This document shows positions 1,676-45,419 of a stretch of DNA of 64,000 nt, piece by piece. The notes under the pieces are model-generated. The model did no database searches. It saw nothing but the letters and a program-made list of their open reading frames with translations, and had not been told where the DNA came from. Positions within the stretch are counted from its first letter, which is position 1, and every line of letters begins with the position of its first letter. Source of the DNA: a virus (Duplodnaviria; Heunggongvirae; Uroviricota; Caudoviricetes); IMG/VR virus record IMGVR_UViG_3300018430_000002. One strand, 5' to 3'. A program made the translations under genes and the position numbers.

Positions 1676-1726
1676 GCTTTTCTCAACCTTACATATATAT
1701 TATATCATAAATTTTTAGAATTTTCA
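1676..1726 (-). promoter_or_regulatory. class I promoter, representative copy: TTGAAA-N16/17-TGATATAAT-ATATATGTAAGGTTGAG
   Basis: About 45-bp motif (plus-strand form ctcaaccttacatatatattatatcaaaatttttgaaattttcaa) found at about 22 sites: 1680, 3841, 4210, 10841, 13515, 15455, 15812, 16008, 16455, 16692, 18465, 20955, 22378, 24481, 25413, 27255, 27325, 30185, 30262, 45348. Confidence 0.6.
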
Positions 1727-1762
1727 AATAAAAAGCCCCGAGTCTAAACCTGGGGCTATATA

Positions 1763-1957
1763 TTATTGTTTATGAATATCTCGCCAAGCTATCCAATTCT
1801 TGTGGTCGCAACTAGGACACTTCATTAAGCGTTTACCGAACCAATGGAAAGGGTATTTCCATACCCATTTCCAATAGCCATCAACCCAGAAATCTGTGCC
1901 GCAATGCGGACAAGTGAAATGAAGGATAAATTTATTGAATAGCCGCATAACGCTCAC
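1763..1957 (-). CDS. small zinc-ribbon protein (CPHC...CPSC)
   Basis: ORF track 64 aa with two CxxC pairs. Overlaps the end of the upstream gene by 26 nt. An intrinsic terminator follows at 1735-1762. Confidence 0.4.
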   Translation of the reverse strand: MSVMRLFNKFILHFTCPHCGTDFWVDGYWKWVWKYPFHWFGKRLMKCPSCDHKNWIAWRDIHKQ

Positions 1958-3443
1958 CGTTCAGACATTCCATCATCAGGTCATAACCAGTCTTGCCAGT
2001 CATGATGGTCTGGAAGATGGAAGGAGAGAAACCAGATACATAGGAGATACGGCCATTGCCAATCATCGGAATATTGGCCTGACGAGCATCAACATTCCAG
2101 AAGATCAGATGGGGCATCTCATATCCCTCTTCGTTCCACTTCTTCGCAATACCTTCAAGCAGAGTCTCCGCATTGCGAGAGGTCATCTGAGAAGTATTAC
2201 GAGCGCCACGATACCAACCCATGTTGTCGCCAGTTGCTTCATCGAACTCCATGTCGGAAATTACGATGATGTTCTGAGGCATGTCCTTTAGCGGAACATT
2301 GTTAGCAAGAGCAGTATCCAGGAGCAGATCGAAAGCAGCTTCGATATTGGTGTTTTCGCAGAGGTTGGAGCGCATGATACGCTGAGTCTTGTCTACGAAG
2401 TCAACACCTTCACACTCAATCAGCTGAGGACGGGAGCTGAAAGAGATATAATGATTGGCGAACGGGCCACCGGCACGCTCAGCACAATACAGACCGAGAG
2501 ATACAGCTACATTCATGGGAGTACCCATCATGGAGCCAGAGGTATCGACCATCGCAAGAGCATTGAAGTTTGCTCCATTAAAATAGTCGGTCAGATTTGC
2601 CCAATACTTGTTCAGCATTGCGCGGTCGGTCTCGGTCATACGATAGTAGTGAGAATGAACCTTCTCAACTACCTCATAAGGATAGAGAGTACCGGCATTA
2701 ACTTTGGTATTCTCGTCCTTTGCGAACTTCTCATACTTCGCCTTGATGATATCGCGGCGAGCAAAAGCGTTCTTATAGATAAGGCCAGCCTTGGAAGGAA
2801 TCTTGTCGAACTCAATTTCTTCCCAGCGATTTTCAGACATCAGCTTCTCGACGATGTTGATGCGAGTACGCAGAACGGCAAGTACCTTGCGGTACTCCTT
2901 ATGGGTCATGTTCAGATGGCGACGAGTAATGTTACCCAGTCGAGTGGTCTCCTTAGAAGAAGCATTCTCAGACTTTAGCCACTTAGCAAGCAGAGAAGGG
3001 GTCTTACACTGAACATCAAGAGCCAGCTGCTTCTTGATCAGAGCAAAAGCATCAGCTTCCAGAGGAGTGCCGACGAAAGCATACAGGTCATCCCAGCGGC
3101 CATACTCGGCAATATTCTCCATATTGCGACGTACAGCTTCACGCATAGAGTCCTGCTTAGCCATGTCGCGGATTACAACACGGAAGAAGCGACGTTCACC
3201 CTGGCCGCCACGCACGTCGCGAATGTAAAACAGACACTTCAGTGCATATACAGGGTTCTCTTCAAATGCCTTGCGGAACATCAGCATTACGTCAGCATCC
3301 GTGCGATTGCGCATTGCGGCACCCATAGCAAACATGTCAAGCAGGTCACTACGAGTAGTCTTATGTGCGATAGCACCATTTTCGGTTACGGTGTAGTTGG
3401 TGGCGTTCTTCAGACCATTAAGCATAGCATTCATAAATGGCAT
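1932..3443 (-). CDS. vWA-domain protein (MIDAS DxSxS) with N-terminal helical domain resembling DUF2828/TROVE (Ro60/TEP1-like)
   Basis: ORF track 503 aa. DTSGSM metal-ion-dependent adhesion motif. N-terminal RDVRGGQGERRFF-type motif recalled from DUF2828/TROVE-associated vWA proteins. Sits immediately downstream of the MVP-like gene. Confidence 0.5.
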   Translation of the reverse strand: MPFMNAMLNGLKNATNYTVTENGAIAHKTTRSDLLDMFAMGAAMRNRTDADVMLMFRKAFEENPVYALKCLFYIRDVRGGQGERRFFRVVIRDMAKQDSMREAVRRNMENIAEYGRWDDLYAFVGTPLEADAFALIKKQLALDVQCKTPSLLAKWLKSENASSKETTRLGNITRRHLNMTHKEYRKVLAVLRTRINIVEKLMSENRWEEIEFDKIPSKAGLIYKNAFARRDIIKAKYEKFAKDENTKVNAGTLYPYEVVEKVHSHYYRMTETDRAMLNKYWANLTDYFNGANFNALAMVDTSGSMMGTPMNVAVSLGLYCAERAGGPFANHYISFSSRPQLIECEGVDFVDKTQRIMRSNLCENTNIEAAFDLLLDTALANNVPLKDMPQNIIVISDMEFDEATGDNMGWYRGARNTSQMTSRNAETLLEGIAKKWNEEGYEMPHLIFWNVDARQANIPMIGNGRISYVSGFSPSIFQTIMTGKTGYDLMMECLNGERYAAIQ

Positions 3444-3485
3444 TTCTCCTTTTTCTCTTGTCGTGCGTTGCTTAGGACAAGCAAC

Positions 3486-3830
3486 TTATTTATTATACCA
3501 ACAAATGTGGGTAAAATCGTAATGATTGCGGTTCAGCCAATCTTCATCGCAGAATATATCAAAATATTCCATCATAACTCCATCAGCATTCTTTTTTGCT
3601 AGATAGCCAGTTCCATCATAATCGATAAAACTACCGTCTTTTACTAGCTCAAGAAAATCTTCAAAAGTATAAATATCTGCGAAAGTAGGAGCAACTGTTC
3701 CATCGGCTTCTGTGTAATTGACAGGAACACCAAACTCATAATACTGCTGAGTATCCATAAGATGATGCAAATATTGAGCATAAGTTTCTTTGTCATGCTC
3801 TTTCAACCATTCCATAAAATATTCATCCAT
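3486..3830 (-). CDS. hypothetical protein
   Basis: ORF track 114 aa. Class I promoter motif lies directly upstream at 3841-3890. Confidence 0.5.
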   Translation of the reverse strand: MDEYFMEWLKEHDKETYAQYLHHLMDTQQYYEFGVPVNYTEADGTVAPTFADIYTFEDFLELVKDGSFIDYDGTGYLAKKNADGVMMEYFDIFCDEDWLNRNHYDFTHICWYNK

Positions 3831-3883
3831 AAAGTGTTTCCCTCAACCTTACATATATATTATATCAAAAATTTTTGAAATTT

Positions 3884-43573: not shown

Positions 43574-44283
43574 TCACACTAAATCATTTTTCGTTTTCAG
43601 ATCACGGGCTTTTTCCAAAATCTTAATTAACGTCAAATCACCATACTCGTTGTGAGGAATGCGCACCAATGGCACTCCAATGTCCATACACCACTCGGTT
43701 TTAATTTTGTCTCTTTCTTGCTGATGTACAAAAGTTTCTTCTCCACCCCAAATTTTCACTGGCGCGGCATGCTGATAACCATCGAATTCAATGACAAAAG
43801 CTAATCCTTCTTTTCCAAATACAGCAAAATCAAAAGCGTATCTCTGTAATCCTTCAAAACGATATTGTTCTTGAAAATTCAATCCACCCGCTTGAAGCAA
43901 TTCACGTATTTTAATTTCGCCTCTCGATGAATGATGACAAGCTACACAAGTATTCTGTCCACTCTTTAGATGATCTGCCTGAATCTGTTTTTCTAAGCCA
44001 CATCTCACGCAACGACATTTCCAATAACATACATGACTACGATTAATATATCCGATTCGCTCTAATACTTCGAAATCGCCATATTTATCTCCCACTTCTA
44101 CTTTCTTGCGTTTGCGCAGTCCAAGAGAACAAGGTTTACAGGAAATTGCCGTTTGACCATTAAGCTTATCAATACGTACACTTACAGTATTACCACAAAG
44201 TTCACATTTACATAAAAAATACTTATTTCCATACTAGGCCGTTTTCACTGGATCCGGCCCTAACACTGTTAAAAATCCACTTT
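43574..44283 (-). CDS. zinc-ribbon + PD-(D/E)XK (Vsr/DUF559-like) nuclease with one in-frame TAG
   Basis: Hand translation MVGKKSGFLTVLGPDPVKTA(TAG)YGNKYFLCKCELCGNTVSV... continuing into the track ORF ...AFVIEFDGYQH.... Confidence 0.4.
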
Positions 44284-44285
44284 TC

Positions 44286-44687
44286 TTACCAACCATTACA
44301 ACCTCCAAATTCTGGACACCACATTACACATTGTCCGTCCGGTCCTTCACATCCAAGAGCCTCAATCGGCAAATCATGGTTTTTGCAAAATTTCTCATAC
44401 TCGCCCCATCCGCAATTCCATAATACATGCTTCGAAACAAATTCATTTTCGGCACGTCTATAAGCATCCTTCTCTTCTTGTGTAGAAGGACGAATATTCG
44501 GGTCTTTTGGCTCATGATACTTAATAGTCGTAGAGCCATCTGGATTTGTTGTCCATGTAGTAATATTCTTATACCACTCCGAATCTTTCTTAAAAGGATT
44601 TTCAAGAGTAGTAGTTCTGTCCCATTCTTCTCTAGCATGAAATACTACCGCATTCACGCCACTAACTACAATAGGTTTAAAAGACAT
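44286..44687 (-). CDS. hypothetical protein
   Basis: ORF track 133 aa. Confidence 0.45.
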   Translation of the reverse strand: MSFKPIVVSGVNAVVFHAREEWDRTTTLENPFKKDSEWYKNITTWTTNPDGSTTIKYHEPKDPNIRPSTQEEKDAYRRAENEFVSKHVLWNCGWGEYEKFCKNHDLPIEALGCEGPDGQCVMWCPEFGGCNGW

Positions 44688-45054
44688 CTATATCGTAATC
44701 CCCTCTCACGGCAACCCAATCGCCGACATTAACATGCATTGTCTGCCACTCGTGAAGCCGAACTTCTCTCCACTTGCCGTCTCGCTCAATTCGAATATAC
44801 CAATAGCCCGGCTTATCAACCATTCTGTGGCCATCTGCCATGGTGATAATTTCTCTGGGGTGATACTGCTCCAAGACAACCTCACCTGTAGACAGGCGTG
44901 GGTCATAATTGGATAAATCACCTATCGCAAAAGTAAGGAGAGTGGCTAACATAATCGCCACGACAACCATAAAAACTGGTACAAAAATTTTACTTGTACG
45001 GCTCATTCTATGCGTATCCTCCTTGGTAGTCCTGCCAGATACCTTCGTCGCCAA
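44677..45054 (-). CDS. membrane-anchored hypothetical protein
   Basis: ORF track 125 aa. Confidence 0.45.
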   Translation of the reverse strand: MATKVSGRTTKEDTHRMSRTSKIFVPVFMVVVAIMLATLLTFAIGDLSNYDPRLSTGEVVLEQYHPREIITMADGHRMVDKPGYWYIRIERDGKWREVRLHEWQTMHVNVGDWVAVRGDYDIDVF

Positions 45055-45346
45055 AATACATTACAGCATCTTTCATATTATATCTATCGCCGACCCAAAA
45101 AGTATACCACTGAGCCGGGCTTACATATTTGGTCCAACGGCAACCATCAAGGTCATCAATGACAAACCAGTAAACGCCACCATGATTCTGACCATATTCA
45201 TCAATATAGCCAGTTACCATACCCTTGTCTACGATAACGCCAGTGTCATTGCTACTACCAACAAGCAAACCACAAACTCCCACAAAAATACAAATCAGGC
45301 CTACAATTAAAACTACCCATTTCATAGTATTTACCTCTTGTTTCAT
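45008..45346 (-). CDS. membrane/secreted hypothetical protein
   Basis: ORF track 112 aa. Class I promoter at 45345-45395. Confidence 0.45.
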   Translation of the reverse strand: MKQEVNTMKWVVLIVGLICIFVGVCGLLVGSSNDTGVIVDKGMVTGYIDEYGQNHGGVYWFVIDDLDGCRWTKYVSPAQWYTFWVGDRYNMKDAVMYFGDEGIWQDYQGGYA

Positions 45347-45390
45347 TTTCTAAATATATTATATCAAAATTTTTTAAAATTTTCAAATTG

Positions 45391-45419
45391 AAGATTCTTG
45401 ACACGAGAAAAAATTTTTG
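45391..45419 (+). promoter_or_regulatory. class III (plus-strand) promoter TTGACAnnGAtAAAAAATTTTTGtTATAAT; other copies at 27395-27423 and 60707-60735
   Basis: Three near-identical copies including the 17-nt spacer. Each is followed by a GGAGG-type RBS and a plus-strand gene. Confidence 0.55.

Follow-up and report, generated by a model that had tools for sequence, protein, structure and literature searches.

Setting and copy number of the class I family

The 64,000-nucleotide stretch analysed here (the window), taken from the IMG/VR virus record IMGVR_UViG_3300018430_000002 (Caudoviricetes), derives from a large phage and carries a family of repeated promoter elements, hereafter class I, whose conservation runs from the -35 box past the -10 box into the predicted transcript. 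The family lies largely on the minus strand, as do all 32 tRNA genes recognised by ARAGORN (8.5-16.3 kb), and the genes that it serves include those for an AAA ATPase, a peptidase-like protein and a DUF2828 protein. A megablast search with 20 kb of the window against 50,697 phage genomes (INPHARED) returned a 56-nt tRNA sequence as its sole match, and by this measure the phage has no close cultured relative. The best protein matches, at 41-44% identity, fall among Enterococcus Herelleviridae (AAA ATPase, 44%) and Bacillus phages (DUF2828 protein, 42%, in Tsamsa-like phages), and the neighbourhood of tRNA cluster and ATPase is common to the window phage and the Enterococcus Herelleviridae relative. 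Exact matches to parts of the element sit on contigs of ruminant-gut metagenome bins labelled Lachnospiraceae and Agathobacter. Because of these protein matches and this binning of element-bearing contigs, the host is probably a gut Bacillota bacterium, an assignment drawn only from binning and protein similarity.

A scan with the 46-nt consensus put forward in the first-pass annotation of this DNA (TTGAAAATTTCAAAAATTTTTGATATAATATATATGTAAGGTTGAG; up to 14 mismatches accepted, that is, at least 70% identity) returned 23 class I sites in the window, the first at 1682-1727 and the last at 45341-45386, and no site in any of 20 mononucleotide shuffles. With a 29-nt core, searches found 10 and 24 sites where 0.00 and 0.03 would be expected, and a criterion blind to the leader (TTG-N17-TGnTAnAnT, with a spacer of at least 85% A/T) gave 22. 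The figure of about 22 copies in that annotation therefore stands, and its description of them as hyper-conserved applies to 11-13 copies only. The mismatches over the 23 sites were 0, 1, 3, 3, 3, 4, 5, 5, 6, 6, 6, 7, 7, 10, 12, 12, 13, 13, 13, 14, 14, 14 and 14: thirteen sites have no more than 7 (at least 85% identical), and the 11 with no more than 6 share a mean pairwise identity of 0.87 over 46 nt. The orientation and the ending of the element also needed correction, as 21 of the 23 sites are on the minus strand and the GGTTGAG ending is present in 10 copies only, the remainder having variants such as AGAAAATGAAG and ATAAAGTAAAG.

Read on the coding strand, the element begins with a -35 box of TTGAAA or TTGAYT; TTGAAA, TTGACT or TTGATT, followed by a 17-bp spacer and TATAAT, occurs in 21 of the 23 sites, and in an independent scan the two hexamers matched consensus at 10-12 of 12 positions. 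The spacer is ordered as a T-run, an A-run and WTWTG, and the extended -10 reads TGATATAAT. The TG at -15/-14 in all 22 leader-blind sites is a selection rule; the base after it was unselected and is A (TGA) in 20 of 22, and -17/-16 (TTTG or TATG) were likewise unselected. Next come a 6-bp discriminator, ATATAT, a pyrimidine at -1 with a purine at +1 in 22 of 22 sites, a pyrimidine at +2 in about 17 of 22, and a leader that runs T-A-A-R-R-T-K-R-A-G-R-R-A, so that the initial transcribed sequence (RTAAGRTWRAGARAG) is purine-rich and free of C. The invariant Y-1/R+1 is consistent with a fixed start at the predicted +1. With near-consensus hexamers, a 17-bp spacer and TG at -15/-14, the class I sites are, on their sequence, housekeeping sigma-A/sigma-70-type promoters with an extended -10, as had been proposed.

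Information content, calculated from the 22 leader-blind sites, is 8.3 bits for the -35 box, 14.8 bits for the spacer (a value partly forced by the A/T selection), 5.0 bits for TGn, 10.1 bits for the -10 box, 7.1 bits for the discriminator, 9.9 bits for +1 to +11 and 4.6 bits for +12 to +20. It falls to about 0 beyond +21 and upstream of -36 (about 0.1-0.2 bit per position). The earlier claim that conservation reaches past -10 into the transcript is thus upheld, and the conserved block, about -35 to +15/+20, falls within the -50 to +20 footprint of the open complex (PMC12464699).

The copies are co-oriented with what lies downstream (Table 1), in agreement with the proposal that they serve genes and tRNAs. 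Some 12 copies are followed by a start codon between +20 and +31 and 7 by a tRNA gene 17-253 nt away, and 6 lead straight into a tRNA or small RNA. In one variant the ATG of the next open reading frame (ORF), at 4210, coincides with the predicted +1, and the mRNA of ORF 3884-4210 may therefore be leaderless. A G+C hairpin abutting the element is optional: strong hairpins end 0-5 nt from the -35 box at 4245, 20993, 25457, 30226 and 27402 (plus strand), the hairpin at 1727 has its own T-run, and the stem that precedes the copies at 10888 and 13555 belongs to the 3' end of a tRNA. Three promoter pairs are divergent and back to back (21821-21871, 27344-27430 and 45358-45426). The overlapping -35 boxes of the 21.8-kb pair form a palindrome, CCAACTTGTCAAGTTGG, and the 27.4-kb pair has a common bidirectional terminator-like hairpin.

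Table 1. Class I promoters and related sites in the window. The last two rows are listed besides the 23 sites of the consensus scan; offsets are relative to the predicted start.
Feature	Position	Strand	Mismatches	Context
Class I	1682-1727	-	3	Scanned span -35 to +11; after terminator hairpin; next ORF from +50, off left window end
Class I	3842-3887	-	0 (exact consensus)	ATG at +23 of ORF 3486-3830, then DUF2828/DUF7788 gene 1932-3443
Class I variant	4200-4245 (promoter 4217-4245)	-	13	Fused to terminator hairpin; ATG of ORF 3884-4210 at predicted +1
Class I	10843-10888	-	5	Suppressor tRNA(CUA) 10744-10836 from about 17 nt past predicted start
Class I variant ATAAGGTAAAG	13510-13555	-		tRNA-like small RNA 13415-13514, then tRNA-Leu(UAA)
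Class I	15460-15505	-	3	Leader GUUGAG paired with CUCAAC; tRNA-Glu(CUC) at +33
Class I ACAAGGTGAAG	15810-15855	-	7	tRNA-Lys and tRNA-Glu from +66
Class I	15997-16042	-	4	Small ORF, GTG at +25; tRNA-Lys 15679-15754 253 nt on, behind the 15810-15855 promoter
Class I	16458-16503	-	5	5' hairpin with UUGAGGGAGU; tRNA-Ile(UAU) at +187
Class I, leader GTAATCAAGAG	16690-16735	-	6	ORF 16500-16670 from +31
Class I	18465-18510	-	6	Operon 18153-18449, 17920-18153, AAA ATPase 16753-17910
Class I variant	20948-20993	-	12	Terminator tail overlaps -35; peptidase-like ORF 19807-20934 at +25
Related promoter	21804-21849	-		TTGACA, TATACT; ORF 21007-21798 next; overlaps divergent partner via palindromic -35
Divergent partner	21843-21888	+	14	Reads directly into hairpin; function doubtful
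Class I	22378-22423	-	3	ORF 21893-22336 from +53
Class I, leader GTAAGGTTGAGAGAGGAA	24483-24528	-	7	ORF 22561-24474 next
Class I	25412-25457	-	6	Fused to strong terminator hairpin; ORF 25101-25394 at +29, own AAGGAG
Class I variant AGAAAATGAAG	27241-27286	-		Small ORF, then 25656-27146
Class I	27327-27372	-	1	Tandem, 86 bp upstream of the 27241-27286 copy
Divergent class I variant	27402-27447	+		ORF from +59
Class I variant	30181-30226	-		Fused to terminator hairpin; 5' leader forms hairpin; ORF 29605-30186 next
Class I-like, tandem	30253-30298	-		Transcript would enter hairpin upstream of the 30181-30226 copy; function doubtful
Class I variant	45341-45386	-	10	Last on minus arm; ATG at +27
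Divergent A/T-spacer promoter TGTTATAAT	45398-45443 (promoter 45398-45426)	+		Precedes phrog_5767-like gene 45435-46514
A/T-spacer promoter, same build	60699-60744	+		Plus-strand late arm

Several neighbouring features were noted alongside the promoters. Two long ORFs overlap on opposite strands in 1-1727: the plus-strand frame (141-1718) encodes 525 aa, and the minus-strand frame begins about +50 after the 1727 promoter and exits the window at its left end. The minus-strand gene is favoured because of that promoter and of 73% identical stretches in two relatives (L016 and L116). The product of the gene at 1932-3443 (minus), 503 aa long, combines a DUF2828 with a DUF7788 domain (phrog_850, 'RNA-binding protein') and has homologues in 710 phage records from many host groups. 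An HNH/homing-endonuclease-like ORF (43574-44095, minus) lies between the block of a second promoter class, class II, and the strand switch. Genes for PhoH-like and Clp-protease-like proteins are on the class I (minus) arm, with no promoter assigned to either. Four minus-strand tRNA-like sequences missed by ARAGORN were recovered by Rfam only (8728-8789, 15286-15357, 33552-33620 and 33626-33693); two of the four are weak (about 30 bits) and stand within the class II block, just 3' of a class II promoter.

Conservation of the transcribed leader

The first-pass annotation had read the end of the element as a block resembling a ribosome-binding site (GGTTGAGG). We compared 142 deduplicated sites from the window and its relatives, divided by whether an ORF starts within +15 to +40. 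Over +1 to +15 the sites without an ORF (n = 92) hold 10.4 bits and those with one (n = 50) hold 10.3 bits, and the two sets part only further downstream, where +16 to +25 holds 2.3 bits in the coding set versus 0.4 bits in the non-coding set. Copies with a tRNA start at +14 to +19 retain the leader, although tRNA maturation must trim it away. Because the block is equally conserved without an ORF, it is not a ribosome-binding site; in coding copies the leader runs on into the Shine-Dalgarno sequence, but that sequence is not what keeps the leader conserved.

Elements of the same build were then sought in other metagenomic phages. The exact 26-mer covering -15 to +11 occurs in 24 stretches on about 14 IMG/VR contigs of 13-201 kb, and although these relatives are only about 70% identical to the window in coding DNA, or cannot be aligned with it, their elements align at 88-96%. 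The same promoter architecture is found in at least 13 related metagenomic phages. A leader-unbiased set of 121 relative sites was assembled from the other copies in the 26-mer loci and from loci fetched through the ATPase protein. In this set +1 is a purine in 97%, +2 is T in 61%, +3 is A in 89%, +4 is A in 92%, +5 and +6 are purines in 92%, and +7 is T in 67% with A instead in 26%, while C makes up about 2% over +1 to +14. The GGTTGAG of the window is mostly replaced by GATAAAG or GGTAAAG. Of the 80 loci retrieved through the ATPase (43-53% identity), most lack such promoters, which are confined to the nearer clades.

In a comparison of 13 genomes, spacers had a mean identity of 0.69 within a genome and 0.64 between genomes; the corresponding figures were 0.76 and 0.73 for discriminators, and 0.57 and 0.53 for leaders. 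Dialects peculiar to single genomes, or concerted evolution, were considered and rejected, since within- and between-genome identities differ by only 0.03-0.08. As between-genome identity nearly equals within-genome identity, the constraint is, by this comparison, family-wide, and GGTTGAG is the sub-clade version of a broader RTAAGRTWRAG. The same figures bear on the proposition that these are standard promoters only, whose extra identity reflects recent copy-and-paste or gene conversion of one cassette. The 87% identity of 11 copies over 46 nt would fit such a history, as would the tandem or divergent duplicates at 27.3, 30.2, 21.8 and 45.4 kb. The extended consensus is nonetheless present in those at least 13 related genomes at almost the same identity between as within genomes, in flanking DNA that is about 70% identical or unalignable, and similar layouts occur in unrelated phage families. 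This proposition is already disfavoured, and we regard it as highly improbable.

A dimeric-repressor operator, suggested by the palindromes TTGAAA-A-TTTCAA and TCAAAAATTTTTGA, was rejected, as the relatives are without them: TTGAA-N3-TTCAA occurs in 7 window copies but in 1 of the 121 relative sites.

The region +1 to +15 might instead work as RNA, either as a 5' leader that protects against 5'-end-dependent decay (through a bound ribosome, or an end that is a poor substrate for pyrophosphohydrolase or RNase J) or as a standby or enhancer site for translation. Shine-Dalgarno-like stabilisers at the 5' end and 5' hairpins are known from Bacillus mRNAs. The purine-rich, nearly C-free leader would stay unpaired around the Shine-Dalgarno sequence, the start codons at +20 to +31 place the block against or within that sequence in many copies, and in several non-coding copies the block folds into a hairpin at the 5' end or supplies the 5' side of a closing stem. 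Against this stand the equal conservation with and without an ORF, the persistence of the block where tRNA maturation removes it, and the GATAAAG and GGTAAAG of the relatives, which weaken complementarity to the 16S rRNA tail. Nor did the RNA-level element proposed earlier gain support from folding. The 22 leaders (+1 to +45) have no common fold, their structures being heterogeneous with a mean z-score of -0.8, and the conserved bases are unpaired in most folded copies and paired in a few. An Rfam scan of the window at gathering thresholds returned tRNAs and no other RNA family, and a permissive scan of the 13.4-13.5 kb leader gave chance-level matches only. We consider an RNA-level role improbable.

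A small structured RNA was observed at 13415-13514 (minus), between the class I promoter at 13510-13555 and tRNA-Leu. It has a 9-bp closing stem (AAGGCACUG/CAGUGCCUU), an ACAGCAAY motif (ACAGCAAU) and a tRNA-like T-arm and T-loop (GGUUCGAAUCC), with compensatory changes in the closing stem and T-arm in an alignment of 4 homologues, and it has no match in Rfam. Homologues follow class I promoters in relatives (L007:7814-7908, L028:11172-11274, L036:16465-16562 and others), and a similar stem with CAGCAA follows the promoters at about two-thirds of 21 related sites. Because the phage also encodes the DUF2828/DUF7788 'RNA-binding protein', a Y-RNA-like partnership between the two is conceivable.

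Proposed roles in recruitment and escape, and the contrast with class II

We favour, with a probability of roughly 60%, the reading that class I elements are strong promoters of the host sigma-A holoenzyme tuned over the whole footprint of RNA polymerase (RNAP), promoter escape included. We infer where transcription starts, that the polymerase used is that of the host, and which kinetic step each segment serves. The phage would use class I for non-late genes, tRNA sub-operons and small RNAs, and selection would act on the entire polymerase contact surface together with the first ~15 transcribed bases, each segment tuning one kinetic step. TTGAnn at 17-bp spacing with TRTG/TGn-TATAAT would set binding and melting; the T-run/A-run spacer would favour a bent spacer path; the A/T-only 6-bp discriminator with Y-1/R+1/Y+2 would give fast opening and a fixed start; and the purine-rich, C-free initial transcribed sequence would let a tightly bound polymerase escape productively, without abortive cycling. 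In protein-coding copies the purine run would extend into the Shine-Dalgarno sequence, making promoter, short 5' untranslated region and ribosome site one compact cassette.

The precedent for these roles is the T5 promoter PN25, in which spacer, discriminator and initial transcribed sequence reportedly work via host RNAP itself (PMC12464699, PMC5961368). PN25 is limited by escape, and its purine-rich initial transcribed sequence yields about 10-fold more productive RNA than a pyrimidine-rich 'anti' version; its A/T spacer, similar to the full-consensus spacer, contributes to anchoring the DNA upstream (PMC12464699). The initial transcribed sequence can alter promoter output over about three orders of magnitude, and escape correlates with purine content and RNA:DNA hybrid stability, whereas TG motifs near +5/+6 slow it (PMC5961368).

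Four points weigh against the tuned-promoter reading. All the kinetic roles are carried over by analogy from Escherichia coli RNAP acting on T5 PN25. The class I leader is not obviously 'optimal' for escape, because its T at +7/+8 followed by G resembles the escape-slowing pause signal placed at about +5/+6 in E. coli (PMC5961368). The upstream A-rich UP element of T5-type promoters is not conserved in class I. Finally, the class II promoters of the same window, with equally good hexamers but another spacer, discriminator and leader, show that RNAP does not demand the class I version.

Class II comprises about 30 sites at 31200-43000 (minus), ahead of many small ORFs, in a block (31-43 kb) that resembles a host-takeover block. 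Its build is (TTAACAAAnnCTTAAC)-TTGACA-N12-TGGTATAAT-nnATAC-ATCAAGAGG. The hexamers and TG equal those of class I in quality, but the spacer contains G+C and is unconserved (4.3 bits vs 14.8 in class I), the discriminator nnATAC holds 3.4 bits against 7.1 for ATATAT, and the leader ATCAAGAGG is unlike that of class I. A separate late class of Herelleviridae type, sought through TGYTATAWTA, was rejected, all 7 matches being ordinary class II or variant promoters.

The two classes invite a further interpretation, in which the spacer, discriminator and leader of class I form an address label by which a phage RNAP- or DNA-binding protein switches class I apart from class II, creating temporal classes for the host polymerase. 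The classes share -35, TG and -10, differ in just these three segments, and occupy separate genome blocks. Precedents are at hand: all T5 early promoters have the discriminator ATATT in common, and the T5 protein gpT5.026, which binds RNAP, loosens the polymerase contacts at -5/+2 and alters the balance between early and late (PMC7472727), while anti-sigma factors of Herelleviridae change the promoter preference of sigma-A (PMC12282133). No candidate factor was identified in the window, however; the rarity of TTGAA-N3-TTCAA among relatives and the lack of other conserved dyads make a classical dimeric operator unlikely; and the presence of the layout in T5-like phages, lactococcal 936 phages and Bacillus phage G, whose hosts are unrelated, points to the conserved polymerase more than to a protein of one lineage. 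A label of this kind is tentatively possible and, to our judgement, unlikely. From the extent of conservation the first-pass annotation had concluded that a further factor from phage or host, or an element acting as RNA, takes part; that step is not compelled, as T5-family early promoters share the layout, and a phage factor for class I is possible without being required.

Alternatively, a -10-like element in the leader (T-A-A-R-R-T, +2 to +7) may hold sigma and pause polymerase at about +12 to +20, either loading a phage elongation or antitermination factor or setting the firing rate. Sigma70-dependent pauses at +10 to +15 in E. coli require a consensus -10, a 6-bp spacer and YR+1Y, and further pauses at +16 to +20 arise where a -10-like element lies about 11 bp past the -10 (PMC7876045). 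Class I resembles the known pause elements (lambda PR', lac and E. coli G1 pauses) in its consensus -10, 6-bp discriminator, YR+1Y and early -10-like hexamer (PMC7876045). A+3 and T+7 correspond to the flipped bases of a -10, with T at +2 in 61% of the relative sites; the leader of T5 PN25 has TAAATT at the same place; and as many class I units end in terminators against the next promoter, antitermination would have a use. The likeness is a resemblance only: T+7 holds in 67% of relative sites and gives way to A in 26%, the A at +4 (92%) is not the -10 consensus base, and the offset from the promoter -10 is 13 bp vs 11-12 bp in the known cases. No gene for a Q-like or other antiterminator was recognised, and the basis is E. 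coli, sigma-A pausing in Bacillota not being shown in the literature consulted. The chance that pausing accounts for the leader seems to us rather small. None of the factor, RNA-level and pause readings and the favoured one are mutually exclusive.

In a more speculative version, the ATATAT/RTAAGRTWRAG module would be a post-recruitment code, read by sigma-A as a pause element or by a small phage RNAP-binding protein, that marks a temporal class including the amber-suppressor tRNA, on which translation of the TAG-containing late genes would hinge, and that arose independently in T5-like, 936-type and gut Bacillota phages; we think this doubtful.

The suppressor tRNA itself bears on who transcribes class I. 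With TAG read through in the plus-strand structural and late arm (45435-61284), ORFs of at least 100 aa grow from 3832 to 6365 aa in total, and 15 contiguous ORFs tile the arm, each with 0-9 internal TAGs and each ending in TAA or TGA; on the minus arm readthrough of TAG gives no gain in ORF length. TAG appears to be recoded in the late arm. Two scanned ORFs, not placed on the map, both match the portal family phrog_2739, consistent with a late gene split by TAG. The tRNA(CUA) at 10744-10836 (minus) is 93 nt long with a long variable arm, its closest relative being the phage's own tRNA-Ser(GGA) at 68% identity. The first gene of the plus arm (45435-46514) has two in-frame TAGs (45897 and 46101). 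Only when both are translated does it match phrog_5767 (a 'sigma factor' in PHROGs) over its full length, with E = 8e-53, the two pieces giving 7e-12 and 4e-27; Pfam found no sigma domain in this protein, so that the label is that of PHROGs only. Because translation of this sigma-like gene would depend on the suppressor tRNA, a timing cascade is suggested, and an amber-suppressor tRNA under an early-type promoter bears on stop-codon recoding as a means of late-gene timing. As tRNA(CUA) is class I-driven and this gene, the only sigma-like one in the window, has two in-frame TAGs, class I cannot depend on the sigma-like protein unless the host already suppresses TAG; this logic supports the dependence of class I on the host polymerase.

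Comparison with known promoter families

The class I leader resembles that of T5 PN25 (ATAAATTTGAGAGAGGAG). An unbiased blastn search with the 55-nt element against the 50,697 phage genomes gave 928 records. Foremost among them were intergenic sites in T5-like phages that infect Salmonella, Escherichia, Klebsiella, Vibrio and Proteus, and Bacillus phage G and many lactococcal phages were also represented; phage SuperGirl carries AAAAATTTTGATATAATATTTATATAAATTTGAGAGAGGAA. The match in phage BF23 is the PN25 homologue before the D2 helicase gene, annotated as a hypothetical early promoter, and its sequence agrees with the printed PN25 cassette (PMC9303389). Aligning the annotated early promoters of the BF23 record gave a T5-family consensus of TTGCTW-N17-TATAAT-ATATTT-ATAAATTGATGAGAG. 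The class I leader matrix scores -2.9 on the BF23 leaders, vs -12.8 +/- 1.4 on shuffles (about 7 standard deviations) and -21.2 after non-promoter TATAAT.

Class I resembles the T5 family in its many copies per genome, its placement before early genes and tRNA clusters, its predicted use of host RNAP, and its near-consensus hexamers, 17-bp spacing and T/A-tract spacer. The discriminators are A/T in both (ATATAT in class I, ATATTT or ATTTAT in BF23), and the purine-rich leaders lie in matching register, BF23 ATAAATTTGAGAGAGGAG and class I GTAAGGTTGAGAGAGGAA agreeing at 14 of 18 positions; the general T5-type leader, RTAAAT(T)TGAGAGAG, has GTAAGGTTGAGAGAG as its class I counterpart. The families differ at -35 (TTGCTW in T5, TTGAAA/TTGAYT in class I), in the TG extension (usually none in T5, an invariant TGA in class I) and upstream, where T5 has its A-rich UP element around -43 to -50 and class I has no conserved element. 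Host phylum and phage lineage also differ from T5: the window's proteins match Herelleviridae and Bacillus phages, not Demerecviridae, and the 20-kb megablast found no DNA similarity outside the promoters. On account of these differences in host and lineage, the T5 likeness is best read as convergent, or as imposed by the conserved polymerase and ribosome. The part of the cross-phylum likeness from +9 onward is owed to the universal Shine-Dalgarno sequence, whereas Y-R-T-A-A, the T at +7/+8 and the absence of C are not.

Herelleviridae offer a second parallel. Kayvirus vB_SauM-515A1 and the Listeria P100-like phage CKA15 have dozens of mapped sigma-A consensus early promoters with TRTG, and their strong TTGACW-17-TRTGnTATAnT promoters are spread across the non-structural arm, beside tRNA genes and highly transcribed non-coding regions; these papers do not report a conserved discriminator or leader and stress an upstream A/T element instead (PMC7698491, PMC12282133). 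In the Enterococcus Herelleviridae relative of the window phage, 41 kb held 2 pattern matches, both without the leader, and the host-takeover region of SPO1 gave only 2 good pattern matches, with the leader not shared, and is for that reason uninformative.

Two further groups carry close likenesses of the downstream half. Lactococcal phages of 936 type (Skunavirus) have one conserved site per genome, TTGATATAATATATATATCAAGTTGAGAGAGGAAAGCAAATG, upstream of middle-expressed genes, and their TTGATATAAT-ATATAT-ATCAAGTTGAGAGAGGAAAG-CAA-ATG matches class I at 32 of 35 positions from -15 to +20; they differ in that a recognisable -35 was not found and in that the site is a single copy, not a family. 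In Bacillus phage G, 11 places match the class I element, among them TGATATAAT-ATAAAT-ATAAGGTTAATAAGGAAGG before gp515 (L027, 392606-392651), and because of these matches the promoter-plus-leader style also extends to this 498-kb phage.

Taken together, class I is, by its sequence, of a known kind, that of the T5-type and Herelleviridae-type early promoter families. What the analysis contributes is a precise consensus for an uncultured phage clade, and evidence for an initial transcribed sequence that is near-identical across phage families and host phyla. The consensus provides a testable promoter model for an uncultured family of 125-200 kb animal-gut phages, usable to annotate transcription units in metagenomic phages. 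Among phages T5 is not alone in conserving the initial transcribed sequence: a nearly identical leader stands in the same register in phages of Proteobacteria and Bacillota, a recurrence in favour of treating the first ~15 transcribed bases as belonging to a strong bacterial promoter.

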